Assembly (NCBI GenBank): GCA_041657425.1
Contig: JBBABY010000004.1
Location: forward strand, 60,001 to 92,000
Direction: 5' to 3'
DNA length: 32,000 bases
Source: an archaeon
Lineage (GTDB): Archaea; Iainarchaeota; Iainarchaeia; Iainarchaeales; CSSED10-239
Shown here: piece by piece, positions 1 through 25,486 of the stretch
How positions within the stretch are numbered: the stretch's first letter is position 1
Layout of the letters: each line of letters begins with the position of its first letter
Made by a program: the position numbers and the translations under genes
Notes under the pieces: generated by a model
The model's database searches: none
What the model saw: only the letters and a program-made list of their open reading frames with translations
Told to the model about the DNA's origin: nothing

Positions 1-313
1 CATAGAAATAATCTTTTTCTTTATCACTAGAAATATTTACTCTATCAACTTGTAATTCCATATTCATTTTTTCATTTAAATTTTGATAAGTGGTATATGC
101 TGAATATGCTCCACCTATTACTCCATAAAGCACTGGGCCTCCAGCTAACAGTTTATCAAAAGTACTTACTAGCAGTCCTGCACCTTTTTCAAGAAGACTT
201 TGTTCTACTTTGGCTTTAGCCGCATCCACCGGATCAGCAGAAACAGTCCCTATATTTACTAATAGCATTAAAGCTATTGTTAGTCCTAAAATAAATTTTA
301 GATTTGATTTCAT
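1..313 (-). CDS. Small secreted protein, truncated by the window edge (at least 104 aa)
   Basis: Not in the supplied ORF track because it runs off the window. ATG at 313..311, with AAGGTG 8-13 nt upstream. My hand translation is stop-free down to position 2: MKSNLKFILGLTIALMLLVNIGTVSA/DPVDAAKAKVEQSLLEKGAGLLVSTFDKLLAGGPVLYGVIGGAYSAYTTYQNLNEKMNMELQVDRVNISSDKEKDYFY. It has a classic n-h-c Sec signal peptide with a VSA-type cleavage site. It starts 25 nt after the stop of the 1863-aa gene. Confidence 0.55.
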   Translation of the reverse strand, partial: MKSNLKFILGLTIALMLLVNIGTVSADPVDAAKAKVEQSLLEKGAGLLVSTFDKLLAGGPVLYGVIGGAYSAYTTYQNLNEKMNMELQVDRVNISSDKEKDYFY

Positions 314-338
314 ATTTTACACCTTATTTTTTTAAATA

Positions 339-3300
339 TTAATTTAATTGATTACAAGCATTAATTAATATAGTATGCCCAGTTCCTGTTGTTGATAATA
401 TTGCACTCCACTTATTTTTTGGATAAGAACTATCTGTCCCAAAATAACAATATCGATAATGTGTTTTATCTGTACAAACATAAACTTGAGACTCTCCACT
501 TGGTCTTACATTAAATAAATTTTCTGCCGTTGTTCCAACTTTCTTATTTTTATCACAAATTGCTCCTGTTGTTGCAGAAATTGCTTCTTGAATTCTTTGT
601 TCTGAAACGGTTGGTTCTGTTGCTGGTGGTTCTGTTGCTGGTGGTTCTGTTGCTGGTGGTTCTGTTGCTGGTGGTTCTGTTGCTGATGGTTCTGTTGCTG
701 ATGGTTCTGTTGCTGATGGTTCTGTTGCTGATGGTTCTGTTGCTGATGGTTCTGCTACAGATATTACACAAATTGTTGCTGCAGAATCCATAAATTTTCG
801 TGCATCTGCTAGATTTAATTCTATAGATTTTTTATCTGGAAATTCCATAGACGCATATCTTTTCGCACCATCTAAGTAATTTTTAGCAGTTATTAAAGGC
901 GTACATGGATGGTTATATCGAACAATCTCAGATTCTAGAGTTGCTGATAAACTAATTATTACTAAATTTAATTCTTTAATTGTTTTTTCAGCACCATCTG
1001 TTGAAGAATTTGCAATACAAACGCCATTTACACAATCGTAACCTTCTAAGCAAGGACATCCAACTAAAGTTCCTTTCTCACATTTCCCACTAATACAGTT
1101 CTCTGTGCTTTTACATGCAGGATTACAATCTGTTTTCTCTGCCTCTGGTTTTACGGCAGCTACTGCTTGATATCCTGGACAACCGTCTTTACCTTCGTTT
1201 CCTTTTTGCTCACACCATTTCTTTTTTAATAATTCTTGACTTGGACTATCTGCTAAACCATCCTGCTCCAAAGATTTTAATGCTAAACTTAATGTGGTTT
1301 CTTTCATTGCCTTTTCTAAAGCTGCTTCTGCTACTTTTTCTGACTTCCCACTTGATTTTGCAATGTCTTTAACTTCTGCAGGAGTAAATAAGTTCTTTGC
1401 TAATCCAAAAAGAGATTTCATCCAGTCTCCCATGGATTGTGCACCCCAGGTTGCAAGGCCTGTGAATACGCCGTCTCTTAGTCCACTGAATATTGCCATT
1501 TTCCATCTTGCTGCTGAGGAAATTGAGCCTTCTACTTTTACTGTTTGACCGTAACAACGGTTGATAAGATTGACTGTATCAAAGCTTTTTGCTGTGACTT
1601 CGTTTCCTGTATTTTCTGAGTATTGATATCTATAAAGATCAAATTCGTATCTATCAAGGTCAAGGCATTGAGTTACTGGTCTTACTTCTACTCTAATCTT
1701 TCCAACATTTCTTTCTGAACCTCTTGCTCCACTTACTTTTGAATATACATTTACTAAATATATTCCTGGCATTGCACCCATTGACATTACTTTTATTTCT
1801 TCACTACTTCCGGTTGCTGGAACTGTAATGCTTTCTTTTGGACTTATTACTAAACCTGTACAGTCGTCGCATGAAAGACGATAAACTGTTTCTGAACCAC
1901 AACCTTTGTTTTCAATTGTAAAAGTATCTGGAGTTCCTGTTTCTGGTGCTGTTAATACTTTCTTTGAGATTGTATAACAGTCTTTTAAACTTACAACGTG
2001 AAGTATAAATTTATATTCACTTAATATTTCTTGATTACCTGCAGATGTTGCGTTAACTGATCTAAAGATAATCTTTCCTTTAATATCTCCTGTGTATCTT
2101 CCAACTGGAGTGTATTTTAAATTTACATTATATAATTTTTCTTGATCTACTGTGTCGTAGATATTCTTGTAGTAACCATTAGATAATTCAACTAATCTGT
2201 TACCAACATTAACTGTAAATACTCCTAATGGATTTCCTTCGAACTCAACTTTTGCTGAAAGTCCTCCGTTTAATGGAACTGGTCTTTCTCCAACAGCACA
2301 GTTGTTCTTTAAATTGAATTGTGTATCTGCATAGTAATCAACAATTGTAGTTTCCCACATTATTTCTGATAAACCTATACAGTTTGCGTTATCCATTAAC
2401 CCTTCAAAACCAACAGTTAGAGTTGCTGGTAATTCTGCATCCCAAACATACTCTCTATTGTATCTATCTCTTAATCTAATTACAAGCTTTGCAGGAACAT
2501 TTCTTAATTGCTTAATACTTTCTGCTCTTGGACTTGTAAAGAATCTTGCTTCTATTTCTTGTTTATTATTATAATTGTCTGCACTTGCATCTCCACTTGA
2601 ATCAATACCAGGAATGCTTATTTCATTATATCCTGCAAGAGACGCATTTACTCTTTCTACATCTATCACATCAATCTGGTCATCGTCTCCAACAAAAGTA
2701 ATTGATTGGATTATCAATTCACTTTCGCTTAAGTTTTCAATAGTGAATTTGGCATTTTCGGTTGTCTTTGTATTTACATTTAATGACACACCAAGTCTTA
2801 TTGGAGTTATTTTAAATATATTTTCTGTAACTTCAATTTCAGTTATACTTGTTTCATATTCTGGTGCTTCAACATAAACATATACTTTGTTTCCTGATTC
2901 TTGGCCAGGAACATTATTTACTGAAGCGATTCCAAGTGTGCCAACTTTAACTGGACTAGCTAAAAGATCTCTTTTAAATCTATCCTTTACTCTTACAGTT
3001 ACTGGACCTTCTACTTCTATACCGCTTGTAGTATCTTTAACTTCAACTTGAAGATTAAAGTTCTTTCCTGAAGGTACGACTTCCGGAGTAATCTTAACTG
3101 TAAATGTTTTATCTGAAAGAACATGTATTACTATTAATTTTGTAAATATTACTCTTTGATCAGAAATAAAAGTTAATACAAATTGTCTGTCTCCTTTTAA
3201 GATTGGAACAAATTGCATTTCTCCACTTACTGTTGTGTGTGGATTAAATTGGCTTACTACAACTTTGTATTCTGAATTGTTATCATTAACTGATAATGTT

Positions 3301-5930: not shown

Positions 5931-6058
5931 GTTTATTGCACCATTTTATTTAATTTATTTTTATTTGAATATTTATTTTATTATATATTTATCTTTGTTC
6001 TCTTAATTTCTCAAATATATTTTCATATATATCTACTTTATTATATATATATAATATT

Positions 6059-9000
6059 TTACTGATAATTAATATTATTTATTATTAATGTGGTATTATT
6101 TACTTGAACTGTTTGGCCAGGAGTAATTGTGTAAGTTCCATCTATATTTGTAGAACTTGCAGAAGTGTTTAATGTTCCGCTTGTTTTAACTGTAATAGTC
6201 ATAATTCCTGCAGGGACCTTCCCAGAAATATTTAATTCAACTACGTTTCCAGTAATTTTTGCAGTACCGCTTGTTATATTTATAGTTGCGTCTTTATCTC
6301 CAGTTGCAAATTTAACAGTTCCACTTAATTTCTTTTCTTGTAAATTCATAGTTATTGTTTCTCCAACTACGCCTACCTTGGTCTGTCCTCCGGCAATTCC
6401 TGCATCAACTGCAAAGGTTCCGCTAGTTATTGTTAGACTTACTGAAGTTACATTATCGGCTACAGTGCTATTTGTAACTGAATTACTAGTAACTGTATTT
6501 CCTGGATTGTACCACAATGTAAAGTTACTATTATTGAAATTAAAACACATTGTATTTGTTTGTATCCCGTTCATCATGTTTGTAACTGTGCTTGTTTCTT
6601 CTTTTGAAAATGTACTTAGATTATTTACTGTTAAGTCTCTTGAAATTCCATATATATAATTATAACTTCCGTTTCCAACTGGCATTTCAGGAGTTACATT
6701 AAATTTCATTGATGATTTTGAAGACATCTTTAATTGATATGCTATTCCTTTAGTATTATCATTTAAATTTAAAAATGCAAAAATTGTGTCTCTTTTATTT
6801 GGATTAGTTAATGTGTTTATTTTTCCATTTGATATATATTCTATTAAATAATCACTTGTGGCTAATGCTTGTATTGGCCTTATATCTTTGAAAGTTATAC
6901 TGCTATGTGTTGCTGGTATTGTTAATATATAACCATCTTGAACAGTAGTCCAGTCATTATAGTTTGAAATTATATTTGTAATCCTTGCAGGTCCTGATCC
7001 AATTCCGTTCTTGAATGGCACACCTGTGTAATTGTAATAGAATGCATTTGTTGGATTTGTAAAGAAAATATTCTTTTTGAAATCTGCATGGGCAGAATTA
7101 TTGTAGTAATCTAATAGTTTTTTACTATCGTCAATTTTTTGTACACTATATGTTGTTGTTTTGGTATTTGAATTATTACTTAATTTATCTATAGTTACAA
7201 CATATGTTCCTGGAGTATTAATTTCTTTAATTGATGAACTTGTACTTAGATTAAATTTCCAAGAATCTACTAAAAAGTTATCTCTAGTAAATATGTCTTT
7301 TGTAATACCCTCATTTAGTTTGCCATAAGTTTTTGCATTAATTATAAATGAAGAAACTGTATCTCCATAATATATTTCCATAGTGGTTAAATATTGCTTT
7401 AAGAACTCTGCAATTATCTTTTTATCTGCTGGAGTTGTTGAAGCAATTCTTGTCTCTAATTTGTTTTCACTTCTTAAGAATGAATCAACTGTAAATTGAT
7501 AAATGGTTCCAACTGTATTTACATTATTATCACTAACTGTCTTTACAAGATTTGCAATATTTGTTGTAGATAAATCTGCATTTGAAACAACTGTGATTTC
7601 TATTATTGTAAACTTTCTTAACTCTACAGGAACTGTTTCTAGTATTCCTTTTAATTGTTGTAAATATGTATTTGGATCTGCAGGTTGTGCGAAAGGCACT
7701 TTTGCAACTTCTGCTTCTATTGCGTTTCTATCTAATGGATTTTCATCTACTAGATAAGGATTTGCTGCAACTTTGTTATTTTCTTTTCTAAAGTTGGTTC
7801 CATCTAATTGTATGGTATTATCTGCCATATATAAATCTGCTTTCTTTGACATTGCAATCCTTAATTGATCTTGGTCACAATATACTCTTCCATAATCGCA
7901 AGTGTTGTGATTAATCTCATCTGCATTATATGTGAATAATAATCTATTAAATCCAAATTTGGAAAAATTATCTTCTCCAGTAAATCCTAACTTATTATTT
8001 CCTTTTGGATCGTAACATTCTCCTTCTCCTAAAGCTTGACTATTACTAAAGAATTCAGGGAATTGATTTTCTATTGTAACAGTTACATCCACTGGAGTGG
8101 TGCTTGGGACTGTGCTTGGAGTTTCTGGTTGTTTACCATCTAAGGTTGGTGCACTAGTATCTTCTGGTAATTTATCTAAATAACCTAACCATTGAAGATT
8201 ATCTTTTAAAACAATTTCTTGCTCTAATTCACTTGCACTTAATCTTGGTGTGGAATAACCAACTGCAAGCATTGCTTTAAGATTAATTGCATTACCTAAA
8301 TCAAAATAATCTTTTCTTATGTTAGTTACTGTCTTTGCTGCACTTCTATTATAATCTGTTCTTAATGTCTTTTCATTAATTTCTGGATTTCTTCTAACTT
8401 CTATTGACATGATTTCGGTAGTTTTACCATCTATCATTCTATAAGTTTTCTTTGGTTTAAGATCGGCATTAACATCTCCAATTGAGAAAAATTGAATATC
8501 TCCAACTTTTAATTCATTTGGATTTAATACTTTTAAATTGATTAATGCATAACCCGCATCATAACAAGTATTAACTACTAATAACTTCTGTGGTTTTGAA
8601 TCTATTCCTGAGAAATCAAATTCTGTAGGATTAACAGTTATACAATCTTCAGGTAAAATATCTACTGGTCTGTTTACAATTACAGAAATATCTTTAACAT
8701 ATGTATATTCTTCTATAGTGTCGTCATTTGGTTTTGCACTCATTGCTATCTTGTATTGTCCAAGAACTTGTGCGCCTTGTAAACCTAATAATTTACTTTC
8801 TCCTTTCTTAATTATCATTTCTGATTCTGTAGTTATTGTTACTCCTGCTAAAGCATTAAATTGTAATGCTAATTCTTCGTAACAATTATTTTTAATTTGC
8901 ACTTGTGCTGATTGACAACCGAATTGCCCATTTTGGGAGAAACTTGAATTTGGATAACCGTTCATGTTCTCTCTGAAATCATTATATGGAAACTGGTTAT

Positions 9001-12000
9001 AAAATTGAGGATTTATTCCATTTGGTGCAGATAGATTTGTTGCATAATAACTTTGTGGTGGGGTTCCGCTATTTTGGTATTGATTACTATTTAACAAACT
9101 AGTATAAGTTTGTGTGTTTGATACACTACCATACCCTAACATCCCATATGCTTGGCAATATGGAACAACTATTGGAGTGCTTGGTGTATCAATACAACTT
9201 GAATAATTATTTAAGATAACCTTTGGTTTATGCTGTGATTCAATGATATCTATTCCATTTACATTTGGTCTATTTGAAGATAATTTAATTATTGGTGCTG
9301 ATACTCCACTTTTTGCTTTACTATTTACTTTAAATATTAATTTTACATCTGCGGTCTTTCCTGCAACAATTTTATTTAATACTTCTATCTTTTCATCAAG
9401 TTCTAATTTCTTTTCAGAACCCGAAACTACAACATAAAAGTCACCTAACTTCTTTGTGTTTTTATAATCTGTACTAATAAATATTCTTCCTAAATCAGTT
9501 GGAACTTCATCAACTGTACAAGTGTTCTTTAATTTTATTGAGTATTCTAAATCATTTGTTGATTCAACTCTTAATGTGGTTTCTTCTGGATCAATGGTCA
9601 AACAATCTGTACTGTCTACACCATTACCAAATGTTATTCTTATTGTTAGCGGAATTTCTACTACCCAAGTTTTACCAAGAGTTGGCTCATTAACACTTAA
9701 TAATAAACTTCCTTTGATTACTTTTTGTGTCATTAGGTCAATACCGTTTTCTGTTAACTTAGTTGAAATCTCTAAACCAACTTGAGAATTTGGTTCTAAA
9801 GTTACGCCTTGAGAATTACTTGTAATCTTTATATATTCTGATTCTATATTTGATTTTACATTTGTAATTGTTAATGGTAACACTGTATTATTCATTAAAA
9901 TAATATTTGATTTATCTGAATAAGCTTTTGATATATCTAATTGTATCTCTAACTTTTCAGGAATTGTAGAAATTAAATTTTCTGTAACTAAAAGTTTAGT
10001 TGTGCTTGTTCTATACCCTTGTTTTCTTACTGTTATTTCAACTGTATCATTTACATTTGTGGAAGGAAGAGTGAAAACATATGCTCCTTCTTTATTGGTT
10101 TTTCCATCAATTATAGGTTTTGTATTTATTCTTACAAATACACTTGCATCAACTAAATTTAAATTGGTGTCACCAGTTACTCCAACAACCATTACGTTTG
10201 GAATATATGGCACAATTGTTTTTGGTAAAATATCAACAGTCAATTGTTTTGAAGGTTTTAAATCAAATAATATCTTCTTTGCAAATATTGTGTCTCCATT
10301 TGAAAGAATAGTTATTGTTAATTCATCACTAATATCATTTACTACACTTAAATCAACTTCTCCATTAACTGTTCCGTTTGCTAAAATATTTCCTAAAGGA
10401 ATGTTTGAGAAATCAGTATCAGTTATTGGATAATCTCCACCTGAAGTTATTGTATAACTATTTAATTTAATTGTTTGACCTGCAGTTGTTATTATCATTA
10501 CTGCATCTGTTGCTGGTTTTTGTAAATTTAATCTAAAGTTAAATTTATAATCTGTTCCGTCTTTTGCTGTAAACTTATCAATTACTCTTTTTTCTAAACC
10601 AGTTGTTTTTTCTTTAAATGAAAATGAATAGCAAACTCCATTGTCACAACCTGTTGAATCTCCAACAGAGATTGCTAATTTTTTTGCATAAGCATAAAGT
10701 GCTTGCTTATTTACTGAACTTACGCTTGTTCCTAAAACATTATCTTGCGGATTTCTTAAAACTGAAGAACCTTGTTGATATTCTGCTCTAAAGAAAATTG
10801 CTTGATTTGAAGTTGCGGTGTCTGTTACAACAATATCTGCATCAATAATATATGACCCTTCTAAAGGGTTATCGATTGTTACATTAAACCACTTTGCATC
10901 TTTTCTTACAATTGAAATTAAATCTTTTGATTCTCCAAGACAAGGAGTGTAATTTATAGATCCAAGAACTTTACTTCCTGCATATCTTATTTGTTTAATA
11001 TAAACTGAATCTTCTGAAACGGAATGTGTTTTACTATCACAAATCTCTCCTTCTCCTGTTCTTATATGCGCTACTGCTTTTAAATATTTTTTATCTACAT
11101 TTAAAATAAATCTTGCAGTTGCTGATTGCCCAGGACCAACGCTAGTTAATTGATCTCCATTACTTGCAAAATATCCTATAAATTCTATATTTGCGGAACT
11201 TGAAATACTTGTTGGGATTACAATTGTTTCTTGTAACATGCTTTCTGCATCTACTGAATATTGCTTAGAAATAATTCTTGTTCCATCTTCTTTTTCTATT
11301 ACAAAATATACTGACTTGTCTGCTCTTACAGGAATCACTGCAAGACCTGTTTCATTTGTCTCTGTTGTTTTTTCGGGCATTTCTTTATTTTTAGAAGCAT
11401 CATAAACTTTTATTGTTGCTTGTACTGGTGTTCCGTCTGCTTCAATAATTGTTAAATTATAAGTACCTTGACCAATTGCAACTACTACGGAAAGATCAGT
11501 TGCTTCTCTTTCTTTAACAATAAAATTATTTGACTTGCCTGAAAATTCTCCAGTTATTGCTTCTGCAAAATAAGTGGTGTTGGGATCTAAATTTGAAATT
11601 GTGATTCTGCCATAAACGTCTGTTGTTACAATCTTAACAACACTATTATCTAAAGCATCCCAAATTTTTACTGTTGCATACTCTATTGGTTGCACATCTT
11701 TATCTACGACTCCAACATTAAGAACGCCGGTTGTTGATTGTTCCATACTTTTTAATTGTATTTCTAAAATGTTTGCAGAAATACTTATTGTTTGAGTTGA
11801 TAATAAATATCCATCTTTATCTAATGTTAAAGAATAAGAAACATTTTCTTTAATTGCAAATTGTACATACCCAGTTTCATCTGTTAATTTTGTATCTATT
11901 ATTGCTGCATTCTTTGATAACTTTGCAGTTACTCCTTCTAAATAATTTCCTGTTGTTTTGTCTTTAACTTTTATTTTTATAAAACCAACAACATCTTTCT

Positions 12001-13012: not shown

Positions 13013-13077
13013 TTTTGAAAACCTTTGTTCATTTATTATTGAAATTAATATATTATATATATTATATCACTAACAAT

Positions 13078-13089
13078 TGTTTATAAATA
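13078..13089 (-). promoter_or_regulatory. TGTTTATAAATA box (TATA-like), candidate promoter of giant paralog B
   Basis: Exact 12-mer containing the palindromic TTTATAAA, 66-77 nt upstream of the ATG at 13012. A one-mismatch copy lies at 13125..13136. Confidence 0.35.
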
Positions 13090-13158
13090 TTGCTTTTTCT
13101 ATATAATATACTAATTGCTCAAAATGTTTATAAATTAATACTAATTAACTGGTAGAAG

Positions 13159-14886
13159 TTACTCGTTTGGGGGGGTGCAAGGCGAACCTCCACCTGGCGC
13201 AACATAATTTTGACATTTCCAAGCATTTCCTGTAAAATCGACATTCCCTAAACTTGTTGGCCCTAAATAATTATTACCAGTTACTGATAACTCGCTCCAA
13301 ACCCCATTTGGTGGGAAATAAAAAGGCGTATATCTGTCTTCTAAAACTACATTTATTGTTACAGGAAGATTTTGATATTGCTTTCTCACTCTGTATCTTG
13401 GGTCCGTCTCTATAAATTGTAAGATGATTTTCGCGAAATCCATTTCTGAACAACTGAGATCATAGGACGCGCCTGTTGCTTCACCAGTAGCTACAATTGG
13501 TGGAGATAGATTTGTATTTGCATTATACCAAGTAAATAATCCTGGCATTTCCCAAAGCATTTTAGATCTTTGGGTTTCTGAATTTAGAAATAAACCAAGA
13601 CCTCCTGAAACTCCTGACATATCTGATAACTCTGAAAATCTAGTTTGACTAAAACTTGCAGGTGCAGGTCCCGGAGCGTCCCCAAAAACGTCTTTGGTTC
13701 GTTTTTTATCCATAATTACTTCTACTCCAAAAATATTTAAATCGGAAACTGTGTCGCCTTGCATAACTAAACCGTTATTGTAAGTCATTGGGTCTATTCT
13801 TGAAGAAATGTTTTCATTTAAAACTGCAGTGTATAGTTTTTCAAATTGCGATTTTGGATCAGAAGTATCAAATAAATTATAGTTGCCAAAAGGTGGGAAA
13901 ACTACTCCGGAAAGTGCTGCAGGAGTTGGAGTTGCAATTGTTTGATCGGGAATGTTTTGGCATTGAGAAGCAATTCCTGTAGTTGCTGGGGTTGCAAAGA
14001 AATCTGTTCTTGGTGCACAAGTGCCTGGATCACAAAAACCAAGTCTTGCTTGTTCCAGAGTATTATGAATTTCTGGATTGAATAATCCTGTGTCGCTTTC
14101 TGCAACTGCCGGGTTATCTGATCTTTCTGCATCACGACTATGAGCAATATTTCTTGCAACTCTAAATGCTTGAAAACCACGCCATGGCATGTATATCTTG
14201 TATATCTGTCTGCTTAGAACTGGTCTTTGAATAACTTGATTACTTTTATATTTTAAAACTGTGACCACTGGTAAGATTTCATAATCTACATCAGAAAGCT
14301 GCGTAGTATCAAGTGTTAAATAAAATGAACCAACGCAATTATTATCATCAGTTTCACAATCAATAACATCAATTTTCTTTCCACCGTCTTCAAACATTTT
14401 CACAACAACATTTTCAAAAGTGTTTTCGTCATCTATGTCTGTTGGATCTCCATTTGAGCCAACCTCATACCCCGTGTGTTCTTCAATTGTAATATTATAC
14501 CCTGGAGGATTTTCTGAATATTGAAGATTAAATATTAATCCTTGAGCAAAGTAAGATGCAAAGTTTTGTTCAAAGAATGTGTCTTGAACAAAACTATCTA
14601 CAAAATAATTCCAATTTTGATCCATTTGTTTTCTAGTTAAATTAAACGAAGTTTTTGATTTACTTAATTCCCATTGCGATCTTAAGACAATTAAAAATGT
14701 ATTAAAAGCATCTGCTCTTGCAATATCTCCTACAGTCATCAAGTCGGACATTGATGATTGATCTTGAATAAGAGAGAGATATGTTTCTTCTGTATTTATC
14801 ATATTAAAAATAAGAGCTAGAGATATAGATACAAGTAGCAAAGAAATTAATGCAGTAAATAAGGTAAATCCTTTTTGTGATTTCAT
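13159..14886 (-). CDS. Large pilin-like or pseudopilin-like protein with a class III (prepilin-type) signal peptide (575 aa)
   Basis: N-terminus MKSQKG/FTLFTALISLLLVSISLALIF: short basic leader, Gly at -1, then an uninterrupted hydrophobic helix. This is the prepilin peptidase substrate pattern, here without Glu at +5. The rest is hydrophilic and has 10 Cys in apparent pairs (CETDDNNC, CDPGTC, ...KCQNYVAPGGGSPC), which fits an extracellular protein. Confidence 0.65.
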   Translation of the reverse strand: MKSQKGFTLFTALISLLLVSISLALIFNMINTEETYLSLIQDQSSMSDLMTVGDIARADAFNTFLIVLRSQWELSKSKTSFNLTRKQMDQNWNYFVDSFVQDTFFEQNFASYFAQGLIFNLQYSENPPGYNITIEEHTGYEVGSNGDPTDIDDENTFENVVVKMFEDGGKKIDVIDCETDDNNCVGSFYLTLDTTQLSDVDYEILPVVTVLKYKSNQVIQRPVLSRQIYKIYMPWRGFQAFRVARNIAHSRDAERSDNPAVAESDTGLFNPEIHNTLEQARLGFCDPGTCAPRTDFFATPATTGIASQCQNIPDQTIATPTPAALSGVVFPPFGNYNLFDTSDPKSQFEKLYTAVLNENISSRIDPMTYNNGLVMQGDTVSDLNIFGVEVIMDKKRTKDVFGDAPGPAPASFSQTRFSELSDMSGVSGGLGLFLNSETQRSKMLWEMPGLFTWYNANTNLSPPIVATGEATGASYDLSCSEMDFAKIILQFIETDPRYRVRKQYQNLPVTINVVLEDRYTPFYFPPNGVWSELSVTGNNYLGPTSLGNVDFTGNAWKCQNYVAPGGGSPCTPPNE

Positions 14887-14922
14887 AATATTTATTTCTT
14901 ATTTATTATATAATAGATAATA

Positions 14923-14952
14923 AGAATAAAAGAAAAAGGTTTAAAAAAGGGT
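14923..14952 (-). terminator. Oligo-T runs directly after the paralog A stop
   Basis: The minus strand reads ACCCTTTTTTAAACCTTTTTCTTTTATTC after the TAA. An A/T-rich TATA-like stretch (TTATATAATAAA) follows, ahead of the pilin-like gene. Confidence 0.3.
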
Positions 14953-15420
14953 TTATGCAACCTTTGGAATTGCATAATCATCATAAAGAGCATAACCACT
15001 TGATGGAATTACTACTTCACAAATTCTATTTATTTTTACGTCATGAGTAAATCTACTATTTAATGGTTCAAACTCAATATTTGGACCAAATTGATGAATT
15101 ACATAATCGATTCCATCTTTTTTCCCAACATATAATATTGCATGTGATGGTTTTACACAATCTATCCCTTTTGTTATTCCAATTGTTATAATTGCTCCAG
15201 GAACTAAATTTTTCTCGAAATCAACAATACTATCTGTTTTTGCGTCCCAAACTACTTTATTATTTTTTCCAAGTTCCCATGCATCTCCATTTACATATTG
15301 TCCAATTCCAGGATAATTTTTTTCTGCAACTTGCTGTGCAAATGTAGAACAATAATCTGCAGAAATTGCAGAAACATCTTCACATGCAGATTTTGCAGGA
15401 GCTTTTGGAAATTTACAAGA
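14953..15420 (-). other. NlpC/P60-CHAP-like papain-fold domain at the C-terminus of paralog A
   Basis: ...ADYCSTFAQQVAEKNYPGIGQYVNGDAWELGKNN...NLVPGAIITIGI...KPSHAILYVGKKDGIDYVIHQFG. A Cys at a helix start (codon 15349..15351) is followed by an aromatic residue. There is an xGDAWE motif and a PGAII strand. His lies 69 aa after the Cys (15142..15144) and a second His 16 aa further on (15094..15096). Order and spacing match the Cys-His-His/polar triad of NlpC/P60 and CHAP enzymes. Called by eye only. Confidence 0.5.
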
Positions 15421-18400
15421 TTCATAACTTTGTAATTTCGGTTCTTTCTCGTTATACATATTTACTTGTATTTGTAATAAATCTGCAGAGACTTCTACTG
15501 CTGAACCTGGAGTTTCTGGATCTGTTACTGTTGAACCAGGATTTTCTGAATCTGTTTTTTCAGTTGTGTCTTCTGGAGTTTTTTGTGGAGGAGTTCCTTG
15601 TAATAATTCTTCTCTATGTTCAGAAGTTAATATTTCTTTTATTTCTTTATTATTTTCATAAACTATTTTATTATCTTCTGCAATAGATGGAATTTCATTA
15701 ACTATTTTAAAGTTAAAATTATTAGTTTTTTTATCAATCTCAACTTTATACCATGTTCCGTTTCTAAATTCAGTAATTGGCATCGAACTATCTGCTCCAT
15801 ATGCTAAACCATTATACTGCCCAGTCTCTGCAGAATATTCTAGTAATCTATTTCCTAAATAATTAGATAACACAACAACTCCAATATCTAAACCAATTTT
15901 TCCTGTGGTTCTACCGAATTTAGTCCATTTAGTTACCCCGGCAGATGCTAACCCTTTTGCAGATAATTTAACTTCATCTATGTTTTTTACAAGATCATCA
16001 GTTACATCATATAATCCTGCGGTATTTTTTGGACCCGCTTTTATATTTTCTAAACTATTTATAGTATTTTCAGCACCTTCTTTTGATTTCGTAAATGCAT
16101 CTATTTCATTATCTAATATTTTTAGTTTCTTTGTTTTATTTATCTTTGAAGAACTCCATCCACTCTTTTCTAATTTTGCTTTTGCAGCAAGTGATTTTTC
16201 TAATTGGTCTTCAGCTAATTTCTGAGTACCTTTTGCTTCTCTTAAATAATCATCAACAGTTTCTGCAGATAAAGTTTTAGGAATTGTAGTTGTGATTGTT
16301 GATGGTGGTGCAAGATTAGTTCCTAACAATTTATCTACATCATCAATTGCAGAATTTATTTTTGGTGCATCAGTTGTTATTTGTTTAGTTAATACATCAT
16401 CTAATTGATATTCAGTTGGTGACTTTAGGGTTGCACCACTTTTCATATTTGTTTTAAGTGTATCTATGTCTGTAATTGCGCTTGTTGTTTTTGTTTGTGC
16501 TGTAATTAAATCATCATAAACTTGATCTGTTCCTGCTGCTGGTGGCGTTGGATAATCTGCTTTTATCTTTGCATCTATTGTTTTTAAATGAGTATCTAGT
16601 GCTGCTTTAGAATCATCTGTTGCTTTTACCAAATCATCAAAATTTCTTTTGGGCATTATGTTTGTTGTTGATGTTCCACCTGATTTTGTAAATTGATTTA
16701 ATCTATCAGTGAATAACTTTTTATCTGGCGTAATCCAATTCCCTGGGGTATCATAACTTCCAGTAGTAATTATTCTTTCAAATTCTGTTAATTCTGCATT
16801 AGATAATGCATTAAATTTAATCATATCTAATTTCCCAGAAGTTGTTATTTTACTAAATAGGCTTCTAACTGCAGCGTCATCTGACATTCCTGTGGCTACA
16901 TTAACTCCTGGAGCAAATCTAATATCTGTTGGTGCAACATATGGTGCGCCTGTAGGTTGACTCACATAATTTTGAAGATACCTGTATTGATTATTTAATT
17001 GTCCTTCAAATAATACTTGTGTAGATGGTGTAAGCCCTTTTGTTGTGGTTGTTGTTGTTGAACTTATTCCTGTTGCATTTATTTTTGTTGTTGTTGGATA
17101 TGTTGGATTTGGATTTGGGGTAGTTTGAGTAATCGGATCTAAATCTGCACCCATAATTTTATCTGAAATTGCTATTCTGTCTGCAGCGGGTTTATTTTCT
17201 ACTATACTTGCACCTACTGGCCCTGCAACCATTGCAACATTTTTTGGAGAAAATACTTTCCCAATTAATTCTCCAACATCGCCAGTGATTTCTTTTGTAA
17301 ATCCTTTAATTATTTCCCAAATTGGAATTTTTATTTCGGTCTCTTCTAGATACATTGCTCCTGCAGGAAGACCACAACCTGGTGCACAATTCCAAGCAAT
17401 GTCTGAAATAATTTTTGCTTGGCCTAAAATTGGTAATAAATTCCAAAGAGTATCTACTCCAGCAGTTGCTAATGCACAAGGAGTTAAACATCCTGCTAAA
17501 AATGTGCCAGCTCTTTTTGCGGCTCTATCATTATTTGCTTTTATTTCTGATTTAGTTTTTTCAAAGTCACATGCCTCTGGTTTCTTGAAAATGGTTAGTT
17601 TGTCTCCAACGTTTTTATTGTATTTTTCTAAAGTGCTACAATATGCTTCTTTGTCTTCTTTATTGTACGCTTTATCCCAATCTACATATGCATAGAAATT
17701 ACTTTCAGTTTTTGCTTTGTCTTTTCCTAATACTTCCATTTCCTTTTGAGTTTGTTTTAGAAGGTCTTGAGGGGTTATTCCATAGTTTAATAATGTAATA
17801 TTTGTGTCGCTTTTTCTTATTGAATTAATTTTACCAACTGTTGAATATTTGCTTTCTGCAGTTATTACTAATTGCTTATTACTCCAGTTTGCAATTTCTG
17901 AAATGTCTCCTTGTATACAAATATTAAAGTCTGTACCTTTGTCTTTTTCTAAAATCATTGAAAAAGTATTTTCTGATTCTTTTCCTTGGTAATTAAATTT
18001 AGTTTTTACTCCAGGTAATTCTTGAGTTTTAATTTCTATTTGCTCAGTAATTGCAGAAGTTGCGGTTACTACTGTACAGGTACTTGTTGGAAGTAACTGA
18101 AGCTTATCTGTTTTTGCTTTTAGACTTAATGCCCCAAAGTCTTTATCAAAAGATAAAATTAACATATAATTCCTATCTTTAGAAATACAAATGTCTGCGG
18201 GATTACCTTCGATTATGTTTTTAATATCCTTTGCTGTTTGATTAATAAATTCGCTTGGATAATTAACGTCTTCATTTTCTGTGGGTATTCCAAACTTATT
18301 ATTTATAATTACATTTATTGTTTCTGCTTGAGGATCTTTTGGTTCTCCAGGATTCTTAAAATAAAGTTTAGCAATTGCTGTTTTATCTTCAGCAATTTCT

Positions 18401-21400
18401 CCAACAGAAATATTTAATTGACTAAATTTCTTTTGTTCATTTGTCTTTAATTGGAATCTGTCTTCTGTATTAAATACGCCTTTTGAAACTGGAAGACCGA
18501 AATCTTTATCCCCACTAATTACTGTTAACCATGTGTCTCTTGTATTTGTTTTAGAAAGTGCATTATCTATATCTTTTGGCAAATACATCCTTATATTTTC
18601 TATACTCTTCTTACATTGTTCAGTTTTATTTGCATCAATTGTTACAAAGAAATATGCATTTTCTGCATCAAGTTTTGTTTGGCCTTTTGTTGCAACTGAC
18701 CCGTCAATTGTTATCTTATATCTTCCACAACCATTTATTTTATTATCAATATGTATTACCACTCCGCCAGCTATTGAAAGCCCGCCTGTTGTTGCCCCAA
18801 CATTTGGCCTTACCATAGCCCCTTTTATTGTTGGAAACTTTGTTGCTTCTTTATTGTTTTGAAGCACAGATAAAACTGTATTATCTGATAATGAATCATT
18901 CTGAACATATAATGGAATATTTCTAAACTTTGCTAATTGCTCAGAAGTTAATAACTCTGAAATTGGACAACTGCCATTTATTGCAGAAGTCATAGAACAA
19001 TTTGTTTGATCTACTTCGTCAGCAACTTGTCTTGATGCATTTATTACCATTGTATGCATTTCTTGTATTTTCTCAGCAATGAACTCTGCAGCATTAGAAC
19101 TATCACAATATCCTTCTTGTTTACAATCTGTAACAATTATTGGGAATGTAAAATTTGCAGTTTCGCTATCACTATCTGCTGCTTCTCCACAAATTTTTAC
19201 ACTTACATCTTCTTCTACTCTTTTAAAATCTGCTGTAATATCTGGATTTATTTCTTCAACTTCTAGTGAAAACGAAAGTCTATCAGAAGTTACAACACTT
19301 CCAGGAGTATTGTTTAATGGCGCGCCAATTAATCTTAATGATTGATCTATTTTTGCAGGGAAATATTCCAGAGGTTTTACTTTTAGAATATATGGAACCG
19401 TTTGACCTGAAGCAATAAACCCTGTAGGACTCTGAGGAATCAACCATAATTGAGTATTTTTTCCAAATGCTTGATCATAAAGATTAGGAGAAATATTTGC
19501 ACTAGGGTCAAATGTAATATAACCAACTGGATCAGCACATTGATTTGTAACATTGATTAACTTAGATTTTTCTTCTCCAACTTTTGCATAGATGTATATT
19601 TTCTTTTGATCAACTTTTAAACACCCAGCTGATGAAAATCTAAAGTCTACAGTGAATCTTGCTTCTATTGGTTCCTTAACCCCTTTTGCATCTGCTGTAA
19701 CTTTATAGTAGAGTGTTGCATAAGTTGCTTTATCTACTTTTCCTTCATATCTTATAATTATTTTTTTTGATTGACCAGGTTTTATTTCTTCAAAACTTAT
19801 AGGTTCAATTTTGTCTTGGATATTTGAAGGTAGTTTTTCTTCAAATCTTGAAATCTGTATATTTTTTACTGGATATTTACCATTATTCTTTAATAAAAAC
19901 ATTGTTTGATTTGCAGCAGGCGTTACATCCATTTCTTGAGTTAATGAAACTAAAGATAGTGGAGGAGACACACTAATAGTTTTTGAGAAATCAACTAAAT
20001 CTAAATTAAGTTTTGTGTTCTCTAAAGCATAATATGAGTTTCTCCAGGCAATTTCAAATGCGTAACTCTTTGTTGATTTTCTTTCTTTATTATTTCTTAT
20101 TGTTATTGTATAATCTGTTATTTCTTCATTAGGTTCAATTGTTATTGTTGGAAGATCAATTTCTATATTTTCGTCTTTCTTAATTGTTGTGCCTTTTGCT
20201 TTTAATAATTCTGGAGTGATTATTAATGACTTTGAACAATTATTTACGATTGTCGCAGTTATTTCATTTTCTGAACCTTCACTTATTCCAACATAAGCAT
20301 AGATTGCTAATGGTTTGATTTCTAGACAATCGTTCTTTACTATTCCTCTATAATAATTAATAGTTATCTCTTTAGCTACTTGCTTGTTTCCTACAAAACC
20401 ATAAATGGTTAAAATTGATTTCCCTGTTTTGAAATTTATCTTTGGATCCACTGTTGAAAAGATTTCTATAACTTCTGGAGCGCCAGGATTTAATGCAATT
20501 GGTAATTGTGTTTCTGTTGTTAGTCCAATTACTTTATCTATCTCTGTTATCGTGTATGTTAAATCTTTAACTTGTATGCTTCCTTTGTTAACAAGAGTTA
20601 TCTTCTCTGACTCTTGACTAATGCTTTCTCCAAAACTTATATCTATACTATCTGGTGCGTAGATTAAACCGGTGTCTGCAATTGTTAATTGTTTTGTAAA
20701 TGAAATATAACCTGGAGCACTAACTTCCATATTTGGTTTTGCACTTGAGAAGTTTTGATTAATAATATATTTTCCGTTCTTTCCTGTTTTTGTACTGGAA
20801 ATCGTATCTCCGAACTCGTCTGTTAATTTTACTAATGCATTATTAATTGCAGTTTTGTTATCTGCATCTTGTACATCTATAATTATTGGAGAATTATATG
20901 CAATGATTTCTGGAACTGTAATTATTAGATTTCTCTTTTGTTTTATTTCAAAACTTAATCTTTTTTCTATAACTTTACTATTAAATGTACTTTTTATATC
21001 TAAGTAAGTTATTCCTGTATCTTTTGCTTTAAATAATATATATTGTTTTCTGTTCACGCCTGATTGTATTACAAATACTGAAGAACTTAATTTTGTATCT
21101 TGTGAATCAAGACTAGAGGTTGGAAACAATTCTGTTTCTTGATAACTTATTAAACCAACTATTGGCTTACTATTGTCAGTTTGTGCTTCTATTGTTAGTT
21201 CTCCATTTAACACACTGTAATAACTCAATTCAAGAAGATATAAGTCATCTTTTACTGCAAAGAAACTTTCTTTTGAATAATCAAAATTATCTTTATCTAA
21301 AAATTTGTAATCAACACAAAGATTATTAGAGCACTCTGCTGGACTCTCTAAAATGTTTAAGGATAAATCTTTTGTTTCTGCATATAAGCTTTGTCGTGAA

Positions 21401-23814
21401 GAATTATTTTTTGAAGTTCCAAGTATCGTGTCTTCAGGATCTCTGTATGTTGAACCAGTAACATCACACCATGCTCTATACTTGATTGGCATTGTGCCGA
21501 TTTCACTTGCTTTAACTTTTAACATTACTTGCTTGTTTGTTAATGTACTACTTGGCCAATATAATTCTAACCATTTATTTAATTGATTTGGTTGTCCAAC
21601 ATTATCTGTATCAATTGATTGTTCTCCAGAATTATAAGTTGTAGAATATTTGTAGGTTATTGTGTCTGCTTTAAATCCGGTTATTCCATAAGTCATGTTT
21701 TCAGAATCAGACTCGAAATATTCTCCTGCTCTGAAATGCACTCCGCAACTTTTTGCATCAATTGGGAGTTGTAAATCAAAGACAAGATAGTAATCTGCAT
21801 CTTTACTTAGAACACTTGTTGGATTATTATATATATCTCTTAATTCTATAAATGTAATTACTGGATTATAATCTATAACTGATGGTTTAAGAGCTACTGA
21901 TAATTTTTCGCTATCTCCAACAACTGCAGAAACAATTGTTGTCGCGCCATTTTCATCTGTATATTCTATTAATAAATCCCTATAGCCTTGAGTATTGAAT
22001 GACAATGGAGTTTCATCAAGACAGGTGTCTGAAAGAATCTCTCCAAGTTTTGATTTTACAACAACACATCCGTTGGTTACACCATTTCCATGTAAGTCTT
22101 TTAATTCTAAAGTAACTATCTTTGATGCATCGTTAATTGTTAAAATTACTTTATTGTCCTTAAATGGATCAATAGTTATTTCCTTAGAAGCATTAGCATC
22201 TCCAACAACCCCTACAACATTATATTTTTCTCCTGATTTGGTATAGACTGAAGTAAATCCTGTAAGATCAACTTGAAGTGGGCCTAAGCCTATTGGAACA
22301 AACTTTCCTCCTAATTCTTTGTATACTAAAACATTCGCTTTCGAGATTGGATTATTTACTCCATCATAAACATAAATTGAAAGCTTGTAACTATTATCTG
22401 TAGTAATTTTTTCTAAACTAATTTCTAAATCATTTGATAAAGAAATATTCACATATTGTTGTAAACAAAGATATCCATCTTTACAAGCAGTAACTACATA
22501 TTCTTGATTTTGATCAAGACCATTAAATATTACTTGCCCATCCATTTCTGTGGTTTTAGAAGATAAAAGATTTCCAGTTAAACTGTATAATGAAATGCCT
22601 ACTTGATCTAATGGGCCAACTAAGTTTTCTGTAACTTTAACTTTTAAATCAGAACTTCCTGCAATCATCTTTATAGTAATTGTTTCTTCGCTTTTTAATA
22701 ATCTATATGTTACATTGTACGTATCACTGTCATAAATTCTATAGCCTTCTTTAGTTACTACAAAACGAATTGCTTGCCCAGCATTTAATGTAAATGTAGT
22801 TTTACCTAATTTTGTAATCTCGCTACCAATTATTTCTCCAACAGCATTATAAATGATAACATTACAATCATCAAGTAAATCCCCGTTTTGTGTTGTTGTT
22901 ATTAATATTAATCTTGATTGCGTGCCTGCTAATTGAGCAGTGTTGTCGTATTCTAAATTTATAGTTCTAGTTTCATTAGAACTTGTTAATTTTATTGTTT
23001 GAGTTAATGTTTCATAACCGTCGCTAACAATTGTTAAAGTTATATCTTTTCCTATAGGAACCCCTGTAAAATCAATCTCTCCCAATGTATTTGGTTCTCC
23101 AATCTTTTCTTGAGCTTGACCATTGATTTTATAATCTAATGTTGCTGAGTATTTACTTACAGATTTATTAGTTTGGCTATCTGTAACTATTAATTTTAAA
23201 TTGCCAGTCTCTATTAATTCATTAAATTGTATAACTAATGGACCATCTCCGGAATACATAAATGGTTTCTCATAAACTTGAAATCCTTCTTTTGTTGCTG
23301 TGACTGTATAATCTTTTCCCGGACTTATTGCAATTCTTCTCTTTTCTCCATTACTTATTATTTCATTAAATTTAGCTTTATCATTTAAATCTCTTATTGA
23401 AACTTGCACATAATTTAATTTATTTCCTGAATAATCCATTATGCTAAACTCAACTGTTGTCTTTGTTGCAAAGTTGATTACTAAAAAAATGATTATTGCT
23501 AAAATAATTATTGAAAGACTTGTAACGAAAGCAAAAGAAGGAATTCCTTTATCTTCAAGAAAATCATTTAGTTTGTTTAAGCCTATTCCTTTCTTACCTA
23601 ACCAATCAGAAAATGCAAAATACCTATCTTCCAAACCTCTATAGATTTTGCCAAAAATATTTCCCTCTTGCTGTTTATCCATTTCATTATCTGAAAAATC
23701 ATTATTAACTTCAGAATAATCTTCAATTTCTTGATTATCAGAAATCTCTTGATCTTCTAAATCAGAAAAATCCTCTTTTTTTGTTTTCTTTGGTTTTGCT
23801 TTTTCTTTTGCCAT
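14953..23814 (-). CDS. Giant N-terminally anchored surface protein, paralog A (2953 aa), with a C-terminal papain-fold (NlpC/P60-CHAP-like) domain
   Basis: Uninterrupted 8862-nt ORF, ATG start. A charged/acidic leader of about 54 aa, then IFGKIYRGLEDRYF...DKGIPSF plus a hydrophobic helix (about aa 94-114). Six CarboxypepD_reg/PEGA-like repeats, e.g. LKVKVTENLVGPLDQVGISLYSLTGNLL...DGQVIF...EYVVTACKDGY. Shared central module, two-Cys Ig-like repeats, hydrophobic Gly/Ala/Cys segment, Thr-run linker, helical region, P/T/E linker, and a Cys/His domain. Confidence 0.9.
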   Translation of the reverse strand: MAKEKAKPKKTKKEDFSDLEDQEISDNQEIEDYSEVNNDFSDNEMDKQQEGNIFGKIYRGLEDRYFAFSDWLGKKGIGLNKLNDFLEDKGIPSFAFVTSLSIIILAIIIFLVINFATKTTVEFSIMDYSGNKLNYVQVSIRDLNDKAKFNEIISNGEKRRIAISPGKDYTVTATKEGFQVYEKPFMYSGDGPLVIQFNELIETGNLKLIVTDSQTNKSVSKYSATLDYKINGQAQEKIGEPNTLGEIDFTGVPIGKDITLTIVSDGYETLTQTIKLTSSNETRTINLEYDNTAQLAGTQSRLILITTTQNGDLLDDCNVIIYNAVGEIIGSEITKLGKTTFTLNAGQAIRFVVTKEGYRIYDSDTYNVTYRLLKSEETITIKMIAGSSDLKVKVTENLVGPLDQVGISLYSLTGNLLSSKTTEMDGQVIFNGLDQNQEYVVTACKDGYLCLQQYVNISLSNDLEISLEKITTDNSYKLSIYVYDGVNNPISKANVLVYKELGGKFVPIGLGPLQVDLTGFTSVYTKSGEKYNVVGVVGDANASKEITIDPFKDNKVILTINDASKIVTLELKDLHGNGVTNGCVVVKSKLGEILSDTCLDETPLSFNTQGYRDLLIEYTDENGATTIVSAVVGDSEKLSVALKPSVIDYNPVITFIELRDIYNNPTSVLSKDADYYLVFDLQLPIDAKSCGVHFRAGEYFESDSENMTYGITGFKADTITYKYSTTYNSGEQSIDTDNVGQPNQLNKWLELYWPSSTLTNKQVMLKVKASEIGTMPIKYRAWCDVTGSTYRDPEDTILGTSKNNSSRQSLYAETKDLSLNILESPAECSNNLCVDYKFLDKDNFDYSKESFFAVKDDLYLLELSYYSVLNGELTIEAQTDNSKPIVGLISYQETELFPTSSLDSQDTKLSSSVFVIQSGVNRKQYILFKAKDTGITYLDIKSTFNSKVIEKRLSFEIKQKRNLIITVPEIIAYNSPIIIDVQDADNKTAINNALVKLTDEFGDTISSTKTGKNGKYIINQNFSSAKPNMEVSAPGYISFTKQLTIADTGLIYAPDSIDISFGESISQESEKITLVNKGSIQVKDLTYTITEIDKVIGLTTETQLPIALNPGAPEVIEIFSTVDPKINFKTGKSILTIYGFVGNKQVAKEITINYYRGIVKNDCLEIKPLAIYAYVGISEGSENEITATIVNNCSKSLIITPELLKAKGTTIKKDENIEIDLPTITIEPNEEITDYTITIRNNKERKSTKSYAFEIAWRNSYYALENTKLNLDLVDFSKTISVSPPLSLVSLTQEMDVTPAANQTMFLLKNNGKYPVKNIQISRFEEKLPSNIQDKIEPISFEEIKPGQSKKIIIRYEGKVDKATYATLYYKVTADAKGVKEPIEARFTVDFRFSSAGCLKVDQKKIYIYAKVGEEKSKLINVTNQCADPVGYITFDPSANISPNLYDQAFGKNTQLWLIPQSPTGFIASGQTVPYILKVKPLEYFPAKIDQSLRLIGAPLNNTPGSVVTSDRLSFSLEVEEINPDITADFKRVEEDVSVKICGEAADSDSETANFTFPIIVTDCKQEGYCDSSNAAEFIAEKIQEMHTMVINASRQVADEVDQTNCSMTSAINGSCPISELLTSEQLAKFRNIPLYVQNDSLSDNTVLSVLQNNKEATKFPTIKGAMVRPNVGATTGGLSIAGGVVIHIDNKINGCGRYKITIDGSVATKGQTKLDAENAYFFVTIDANKTEQCKKSIENIRMYLPKDIDNALSKTNTRDTWLTVISGDKDFGLPVSKGVFNTEDRFQLKTNEQKKFSQLNISVGEIAEDKTAIAKLYFKNPGEPKDPQAETINVIINNKFGIPTENEDVNYPSEFINQTAKDIKNIIEGNPADICISKDRNYMLILSFDKDFGALSLKAKTDKLQLLPTSTCTVVTATSAITEQIEIKTQELPGVKTKFNYQGKESENTFSMILEKDKGTDFNICIQGDISEIANWSNKQLVITAESKYSTVGKINSIRKSDTNITLLNYGITPQDLLKQTQKEMEVLGKDKAKTESNFYAYVDWDKAYNKEDKEAYCSTLEKYNKNVGDKLTIFKKPEACDFEKTKSEIKANNDRAAKRAGTFLAGCLTPCALATAGVDTLWNLLPILGQAKIISDIAWNCAPGCGLPAGAMYLEETEIKIPIWEIIKGFTKEITGDVGELIGKVFSPKNVAMVAGPVGASIVENKPAADRIAISDKIMGADLDPITQTTPNPNPTYPTTTKINATGISSTTTTTTKGLTPSTQVLFEGQLNNQYRYLQNYVSQPTGAPYVAPTDIRFAPGVNVATGMSDDAAVRSLFSKITTSGKLDMIKFNALSNAELTEFERIITTGSYDTPGNWITPDKKLFTDRLNQFTKSGGTSTTNIMPKRNFDDLVKATDDSKAALDTHLKTIDAKIKADYPTPPAAGTDQVYDDLITAQTKTTSAITDIDTLKTNMKSGATLKSPTEYQLDDVLTKQITTDAPKINSAIDDVDKLLGTNLAPPSTITTTIPKTLSAETVDDYLREAKGTQKLAEDQLEKSLAAKAKLEKSGWSSSKINKTKKLKILDNEIDAFTKSKEGAENTINSLENIKAGPKNTAGLYDVTDDLVKNIDEVKLSAKGLASAGVTKWTKFGRTTGKIGLDIGVVVLSNYLGNRLLEYSAETGQYNGLAYGADSSMPITEFRNGTWYKVEIDKKTNNFNFKIVNEIPSIAEDNKIVYENNKEIKEILTSEHREELLQGTPPQKTPEDTTEKTDSENPGSTVTDPETPGSAVEVSADLLQIQVNMYNEKEPKLQSYESCKFPKAPAKSACEDVSAISADYCSTFAQQVAEKNYPGIGQYVNGDAWELGKNNKVVWDAKTDSIVDFEKNLVPGAIITIGITKGIDCVKPSHAILYVGKKDGIDYVIHQFGPNIEFEPLNSRFTHDVKINRICEVVIPSSGYALYDDYAIPKVA

Positions 23815-25476: not shown

Positions 25477-25486
25477 TGCTAATAAC

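Follow-up and report, generated by a model that had tools for sequence, protein, structure and literature searches.

The window considered here is a 32,000-nucleotide stretch of contig JBBABY010000004.1 (assembly GCA_041657425.1, positions 60,001 to 92,000 of the forward strand), with a G+C content that is even throughout, at ~0.26-0.35. The stretch is also contained in ENA contig ERZ27247350:k141_895461, and the NCBI contig is 101.8 kb long. Four consecutive open reading frames (ORFs) on its minus strand, referred to below as A, P, B, and C, together take up 23,136 nt. Gene A (14953-23814) encodes a giant protein of 2953 aa (NCBI MFA5745847.1, "hypothetical protein"), P (13159-14886) a pilin-like protein of 575 aa, B (6059-13012) a giant of 2317 aa (P0005; "hypothetical protein WCX82_01050" in NCBI), and C (339-5930) a third giant of 1863 aa (MFA5745844.1, likewise hypothetical). 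These coordinates, the strand, and the lengths had been given in an earlier note made from the sequence alone, and all proved exact. The 5′ part (~105 codons) of a fifth minus-strand gene, S (1-323), is cut by the window edge; hence, the cluster reaches past window position 1. As argued below, the five genes may encode long surface fibres that are directed at bacterial cell walls.

Related loci were identified by scanning the N-terminal motif of the giants, [FI]Y[YRH]x[LQ]E[DN][KR]Y[FY], over a set with a single genome for each GTDB species. Forty loci matched (L numbers below), nearly all of which are labelled Candidatus Iainarchaeum, archaeon GW2011_AR10, or Micrarchaeota. The earlier note had proposed to check whether the gene order (giant, pilin-like, giant, giant, then secreted) is conserved. 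The order A-P-B-C-S is kept in ~15 loci, with protein identity down to ~25% (L002, L005, L006, L007, L009, L012, L014, L015, L016, L017, L020, L021, L026, and L027, and partly in others). An A-type ortholog lies upstream of P in ~15 genomes (A matches P0020 at E=5e-116), and S orthologs follow C in L002, L007, L012, L027, and L028. The contigs of L016 ("Thaumarchaeota archaeon") and L017 ("Candidatus Falkowbacteria bacterium"), which also bear the A-P-B-C cluster, are probably mis-binned or mislabelled. In L003 (143-7855), the B-type gene is present as two ORFs of 1354 and 1095 aa, which reflects either a pseudogene or an artefact (of assembly or a frameshift).

Three giants built on a shared stalk

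The three giants had been described as paralogs with the same module order, and the comparisons bear this out. B and C align over ~935 aa in blastp (E=1.8e-38), while the direct match between A and B is weak (E=2e-8). A also matches B/C-type giants encoded elsewhere over ~1000 aa (1.5e-21 for P0018 and 5.7e-34 for L022), and an alignment of nine giant sequences is collinear across ~1250 residues. Judged from these alignments, A, B, and C are genuine paralogs that are collinear, with a similarity well above chance.

Alignment and hydropathy analysis reveal in each giant a conserved N-terminal motif together with one strongly hydrophobic helix near the N-terminus. In A, the motif (FxxIYxxLEDRYF...GIPSF) and the helix cover residues 54-116 (23467-23655). 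They are preceded by a 53-residue Lys/Glu/Asp-rich extension (residues 1-53; 23656-23814) that is unique to A, as B and C begin directly with MGL(K/S). The lack of a C-terminal anchor, also claimed before, is confirmed: the only hydrophobic helix is the N-terminal one, the hydropathy profiles of A, B, and C contain no C-terminal transmembrane segment, and no PGF-CTERM was found when the C-terminal tails were read. The "KGIPSF" sequence of the giants was considered as a prepilin cleavage site and rejected, since its Gly varies (KFMPSF in C) and the Pro and the Phe are the sole invariant residues.

No Pfam or NCBIfam model covers this N-terminal leader. The leader alone is also present on other giants, of 1600-3400 aa, from Iainarchaeota and Micrarchaeota (L034-L044), and its distribution marks it as a general, predicted export or anchoring module of these lineages. 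By analogy, it may resemble the extended signal peptides found in giant autotransporters and in TpsA proteins. No genes of the type V, type VI, or type VII secretion (T5SS/T6SS/T7SS) kind were found in the window or in a 10-kb flank, and export of the giants appears to rely on the N-terminal leader and the helix.

The leader is followed by β-sandwich repeats. Pfam CarboxypepD_reg scores above cutoff in A, B, and C, and an iterative family hidden Markov model (HMM) detects 4-5 transthyretin-like repeats upstream of a shared central module and one downstream of it. In A, four such repeats of the CarboxypepD_reg type were detected at residues 124-458 (22441-23445) and one more at residues 979-1047 (20674-20880). 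The "about six" repeats of the earlier note are consistent with this count, as the unmatched gaps might hold more. The central module occupies residues 651-974 in A (20893-21864; PVITFIELRD...KWLEL...DPEDTILGTS...CSNNLC...PEIIAYN) and residues 596-935 in B (10208-11227), and it carries a CxxxxC pair in all three proteins (CSNNLC in A, CDNGVC in B, and CSDDFC in C). The motifs quoted for it before, i.e., the IEF-type start, KW[FL], the CxxxxC pair, and the PEVVPSG/PKTIVPY/PEIIAYN segment, were found, but B reads NPQDNVLGTS and not DP.D..LGTS. Ig-like repeats with a Cys pair are likewise present.

An AlphaFold2 model of B residues 596-935, built with 16 family sequences, shows two all-β domains at a mean predicted local distance difference test score (pLDDT) of 79. 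When this model was compared with the PDB using Foldseek, it matched only Ig-like adhesin stalk domains and transglutaminase β-barrels, with template modelling (TM) scores of 0.2-0.3. From these matches, the shared module is interpreted as stalk rather than as the functional centre. The alternative that it constitutes a special functional domain was rejected in favour of two generic β-sandwiches. The best Foldseek matches are the tandem β-sandwich stalks of Gram-positive adhesins (antigen I/II proteins SspB/SpaP/BspA, PrgB, and ClfB) and of fungal Als proteins (Als3). The giants differ from the Gram-positive adhesins in that they lack LPXTG and are attached at the N-terminus; with TM scores of 0.2-0.3 and ~10% identity, the resemblance is one of fold only. 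Moreover, PDB sequence searches with A, B, C, and P gave nothing meaningful, and the giants have no match in NCBIfam.

The N-x-S/T sequons, reported earlier as very frequent, occur 28, 35, and 13 times in A, B, and C, versus 30.7, 34.4, and 18.7 expected from composition. Heavy N-glycosylation is therefore without statistical basis. B also contains a Q/N/Y/S-rich low-complexity stretch, …NSNQYQNSGTPPQSYYATNLSAPNGINPQFYNQFPYNDF…, in mid-protein (residues ~1290-1365; window ~8918-9145), and similar Q/N/Y-rich tails terminate the split B-type ORF of L003 and one giant of L018. As the earlier note had proposed, the leader, the stalk repeats, and the missing C-terminal anchor support a view of A, B, and C as giant, N-terminally inserted, presumably extracellular β-sandwich fibre proteins.

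The distal end of the A-type proteins

Orthologs of the giants align well through their stalks, but not at their C-termini. This difference is evident in A, where residues 454-2215 are 59-60% identical to the L006 and L009 proteins, while identity in residues 2370-2949 is only 31%. Between the stalk and the tip lies a pre-tip module of ~100 residues that consists of a basic Gly-rich hydrophobic segment and a β-hairpin (residues 2628-2725; 15640-15933). It is found with HMM E-values of ~1e-40 in all close A-type orthologs, including that of L002, which carries a different tip; the statistical evidence applies to this close clade only, and the similar Gly-rich segments of distant A-type proteins were recognized by eye. 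The tips beyond this junction belong to different enzyme families. The L002 protein ends in NLPC_P60 (Pfam, 3.8e-8; 33.7 bits vs a cutoff of 23), the L020 protein in Amidase_3 (5.4e-21) together with Glucosaminidase (1e-10), and the L026 protein in SLT (4.6e-14), a domain that Pfam does not find in the window's own A. Amidase_3, GH73-type glucosaminidase, SLT, and NlpC/P60 domains act on murein. The tip shared by L016, L017, L021, and P0020 was considered as a degenerate SLT domain; this was dropped, as it has no conserved catalytic Glu.

Since the pre-tip module is conserved while the tips differ, the distal end of the A-type proteins is, by sequence comparison, a conserved junction followed by an exchangeable, putatively enzymatic cassette, as in polymorphic toxins. 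In common with the CdiA, Rhs, and MafB types of polymorphic toxin and contact-dependent inhibition (CDI) protein, A combines a very long surface filament, a conserved stalk and pre-toxin junction, and a C-terminal cassette that varies among related genomes. Unlike these, it is archaeal, its stalk is built of β-sandwiches and not of β-helix/FHA or YD repeats, and no immunity gene follows the toxin. No immunity-like variable gene was found 3′ of A, where the conserved P is always present.

The window's own tip comprises A residues 2794-2953 (14956-15435). C2822 and H2891 are kept without exception across 19 diverse tip sequences, and the third position, H2907, is H, Q, or E; these three residues are the proposed catalytic triad. 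An exhaustive HMMER search yielded 20 relatives of the tip, among them small standalone proteins and one fusion to a YkuD L,D-transpeptidase. The standalone proteins (among P0028-P0040) are 116-213 aa long and have an N-terminal hydrophobic segment; the same set includes proteins of 908 aa and 1867 aa that contain the domain. The family is unannotated, and its Cys and His are invariant.

When the tip profile was compared with the PDB at E≤10, the only matches were the T6SS amidase effector Tae2 (6WIN, 0.019) and the C40 NlpC/P60 structures 6BIQ and 6BIM (0.15 and 1.2). An hhalign comparison with the Pfam-positive NlpC/P60 tip of L002 gave a probability of 75% and E=2.5e-5 over 55 columns. Other searches were negative: Pfam PF00877 does not match the A tip or four close orthologs (one remote relative reaches 0.018), Pfam and PHROGs gave nothing useful for the tip orthologs, and the A tip had no match in tblastn against phages, in a single-sequence PDB search, or in a word-indexed homology search. 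A PDB profile search based on just five close tip orthologs was without a match as well. The A tip shares two features with Tae2 (6WIN) and the C40 enzyme (6BIQ), namely the order Cys...His...polar and the strand motif PG..H.hYhG. It differs from them in its marginal E-values, in failing the Pfam NLPC_P60 model, and in ending a 2953-aa fibre rather than being delivered by a T6SS. Tae2 and C40 NlpC/P60 enzymes are used against the peptidoglycan of other cells. We consider the tip a likely, divergent member of the NlpC/P60 superfamily, i.e., a candidate cysteine amidase or peptidase.

The B and C ends, S, P, and the genomic setting

The distal head of B is conserved. It spans residues 1645-2175 (6488-8080), contains a CDxxxxYCDxDQ motif, and closes with CFNFNNSNFTLWYNP (6503-6547), an instance of the C[FV]x(8-16)[FL]W[WYV]NP motif with which B-type heads end (31 of the 98 sequences screened). 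An AlphaFold2 model of the head has a mean pLDDT of 67, with an α/β core at 80-95, and no significant match to it was found in PDB or BFVD. The B protein of the window continues with a β-rich C-terminal add-on of 147 aa (residues 2171-2317; 6062-6502), which some orthologs have and others do not.

The C orthologs can be aligned only to residue ~1500, beyond which the C-type tips are Cys-rich and variable (residues 1513-1863 in the window; 342-1394). The tip is preceded by a Gly-rich hydrophobic segment (residues 1431-1523). Within the tip, residues 1726-1773 (window 612-754, minus strand) are encoded by 9.5 copies of a 15-nt unit at 99% identity, giving an (S/P)ATEP linker; the near perfection of the repeat suggests a recent expansion and possibly a variable length.

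The ORF downstream of C had been taken for a small secreted protein. S is in fact not small: the window edge cuts it short, and its ortholog in L027 has at least 477 aa. Homology (E-values down to 2e-15) links the S orthologs to the head region of B/C-type giants from other genomes. In the translated sequence, a signal peptide is followed by a GxxxG glycine-zipper-like segment (window 1-323; L027 19049-20479; L028 12886-13992), and A (residues ~2636-2660) and C (1470-1500) likewise have a Gly-rich hydrophobic segment ahead of the tip. These segments of S, A, and C may be membrane-active elements.

P begins MKSQKGFTLFTAL and is named [quoted passage not shown] in NCBI. The 575-aa ORF had been noted as prepilin-type, and both its pilin-like N-terminus and the NCBI name agree with that. 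A short charged leader with Gly at -1 is followed by a conserved hydrophobic N-terminal helix, and the N-terminus is of the class-III type (14788-14886; MKSQKG/FTLFTALISLLLV, with the slash after the Gly at -1). All P orthologs start with [KR]GF[TN]LFTAL, then continue into the hydrophobic helix, and have eight invariant Cys; residues F7, F10, T11, A12, and L13 do not vary among 12 orthologs. The short basic leader, the Gly, and the invariant hydrophobic helix (KG/FTLFTAL) are features that P shares with type IV pilins and archaeal class III signal-peptide proteins. It is unlike type IV pilins in its length of 575 aa, in lacking a Glu at +5, and in remaining below the cutoff of Pfam N_methyl (14.1 vs 21.2 bits). 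The length is 3-4 times that of a normal pilin. In the NCBIfam scan, the ComGF model was also below cutoff (17 vs 80), neither Pfam nor PDB contains a relative of the 540-aa ectodomain, and no prepilin peptidase or assembly ATPase/platform gene was found in the window or the flank. We infer from the N-terminus that P may form a filament.

Upstream of the cluster lie genes for a Rad3/XPD helicase, above the TIGR00604 cutoff, and for a tryptophanyl-tRNA synthetase that matches PRK12285-type models, which we take to be of the archaeal/eukaryotic type. Together with the labels of the relatives, these genes identify the source as a DPANN archaeon of the Iainarchaeota/Diapherotrites group. Close B homologs carry the name Candidatus Diapherotrites, and the relative AR10 is a complete genome of 1.24 Mb. 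The window, L002, and L003 yielded no tRNA genes. A 162-aa protein with a SocA/Panacea antitoxin domain (Pfam 6e-22) is encoded directly upstream of a 125-aa ORF without a family match, and the two (25099-25975, minus strand) may form a toxin-antitoxin pair. The same strand carries, upstream of the cluster, genes for LemA (23974-24531) and a DUF2207 membrane protein (28560-30371), which are separated by four other genes; a link to the cluster is not evident.

Bacterial cell walls as the putative target

To our knowledge, archaea are without murein. The substrate of a murein-hydrolase tip must then be the wall of a bacterium, and the enzyme would be harmless to its producer, for which an immunity protein would be unneeded. 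The reading that we favour, at a probability of roughly 55%, is that the A-P-B-C-S cluster builds long cell-surface fibres that bind bacterial cell walls and cut them locally. A, B, and C would be inserted via the N-terminal leader and the single hydrophobic helix, and their stalks of transthyretin-like and Ig-like β-sandwiches would space the heads and the enzyme off the archaeal membrane by tens of nanometres. Binding to the surface of the partner would fall to the B and C heads and to S, while the A tip would open the sacculus locally, for attachment, for access to cytoplasmic or cell-wall nutrients, or for killing. P might either form a short pilus-like fibre or cap or organize the apparatus. 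The "host envelope manipulation" suggested in the earlier note gains real support from the peptidoglycan-hydrolase tips of the A-type orthologs, and the note's interpretation as a whole is partly supported.

Several observations weigh against these wall-cutting fibres. The A tip scores no match to Pfam NLPC_P60, CHAP, or PHROGs, and its profile matches in the PDB are marginal (E 0.019-1.2) and span just the half of the domain with the His strand. The A tips of L012/L027, of L013-L015, and of L016/L017/L021/P0020 are without a recognizable enzyme, and just three of the sampled types are recognized hydrolases. In addition, the roles given to B, C, S, and P are read only from their positions and folds, and a signal peptidase may cut after the helix, such that the giants would be either type-II anchored or released. 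The status of the organism as an "episymbiont" is an assumption, and Diapherotrites are regarded as metabolically richer DPANN archaea that are possibly free-living (PMC8561730).

The possibly free-living lifestyle favours the alternative that survives best. The giants could be tethered exo-enzymes with which a free-living fermentative archaeon harvests peptidoglycan fragments or necromass as a source of carbon and nitrogen, with no living partner involved. The same peptidoglycan-hydrolase tips would fit, and among the neighbours in the window are genes of ordinary metabolism (phosphoenolpyruvate synthase and a GDSL hydrolase). However, genes for amino-sugar or muropeptide uptake or catabolism are not adjacent (window and flank), and three giant stalks, a pilin-like protein, and fast-diverging or exchanged tips are better explained by surface recognition in an arms race. 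We regard scavenging as unlikely.

A cysteine peptidase at the tip might instead act on the surface proteins of an archaeal host or on the pseudomurein of methanogens, the giants being adhesins for that host. Papain-like folds also cut pseudomurein peptides, as in the pseudomurein endoisopeptidases PeiW and PeiP, and the window tip is just a generic papain-like Cys-His candidate. All DPANN archaea cultivated so far are reported to attach to archaeal hosts (PMC11291902). On the other hand, the orthologous Amidase_3, glucosaminidase, and SLT tips target murein that contains N-acetylmuramic acid, which is absent in archaea, and the window tip has its best structural-sequence relatives among amidases of bacterial walls; an archaeal target appears improbable. 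Little also speaks for structural envelope or matrix proteins (an S-layer-like sheath or a biofilm scaffold) with incidental hydrolase tips: the giants are indeed rich in β-sandwiches, Cys-bonded, lineage-conserved, and a large share of the coding capacity, with no recognizable enzymes in B and C, but neither a PGF-CTERM nor another C-terminal anchor is present, a set of three divergent paralogs whose distal ends vary does not look like lattice proteins, and four murein-hydrolase families at one position are hard to see as incidental.

The favoured reading of wall-binding and wall-cutting fibres can be extended, tentatively, to a lineage-wide cross-domain contact weapon or feeding apparatus. 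The three fibres, the pilin-like subunit, and S would form one structure, and its murein-hydrolase tip would be swapped by recombination at the conserved junction, with no immunity genes. We consider this extended version conceivable, although rather less than an even bet.

The earlier note described the system as uncharacterized. This holds insofar as no named system matches; however, giant extracellular murein-hydrolase proteins of DPANN archaea were reported in 2013-2021 (PMC8204110, PMC9723730). In Woese- and Pacearchaeota, extracellular murein lytic transglycosylase proteins of up to 3000 aa have been read as binding or degrading bacterial walls (PMC8204110). Vigneron et al. (2022, PMC9723730) described a "large lytic murein transglycosylase" of Woesearchaeota, and the same paper proposed that such metagenome-assembled genomes represent a "vampiristic" lifestyle. 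These giants (fam00969) are, like the A-type proteins, DPANN proteins of up to ~3000 aa that are predicted to be extracellular and have a wall-hydrolase domain, and the L026 protein shares the SLT tip; the two are likened by description and not by sequence. They have a single domain type, GH23/SLT. In contrast, the A-type proteins come from genomes labelled Iainarchaeota or Micrarchaeota, their tip is from at least four hydrolase families or absent, and each has two paralogs in a fixed cluster of five genes, of which one is pilin-like.

Very large surface proteins are also known from other DPANN archaea. The SPEARE proteins of Nanohaloarchaeota (Hamm et al. 2019, PMC6642349) have several thousand residues, carry adhesion domains, and take up a few per cent of a genome of ~1 Mb; a role in contact with the host was suggested for them. 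They differ from the giants discussed here in having serine-protease, laminin-G, toxin-like, and cytoplasmic restriction-endonuclease domains, mostly a C-terminal anchor, and archaeal hosts. Pfam and NCBIfam find no serine-protease, laminin-G, toxin-like, or restriction-endonuclease domain in A, B, or C. Secreted modular peptidoglycan hydrolases of archaea have been described as well, and two enzymes from halophiles kill a bacterium experimentally (Strock et al. 2025, PMC12352652). As with the A tips, these enzymes are archaeal, aimed at bacterial murein, patchily distributed, and subject to domain shuffling, but they are small soluble proteins that combine catalytic and cell-wall-binding domains. 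Since that survey demanded a recognized wall-binding domain, it would exclude the giants described here. Literature searches found no description of the five-gene cluster of Iainarchaeota, of the three-paralog design, of an exchangeable tip at a conserved junction, of the B/S head, or of the tip family.

Three modules (the N-terminal leader, the B/S head, and the P ectodomain) are without detectable relatives among known structures and families, and the divergent tip family is a possible source of new cell-wall-lytic enzymes. The arrangement would also extend the principle of the polymorphic toxins, in which a conserved delivery stalk carries a swappable effector, to archaea, in a form free of immunity genes. 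Every DPANN archaeon cultivated so far lives on another archaeon, while an apparatus tipped with murein hydrolases predicts a bacterial partner or prey. If the cluster does build a single apparatus, the B/S head would be a new fold that recognizes the bacterial surface, and this group would live on bacteria, as episymbionts or predators, and not on archaea.

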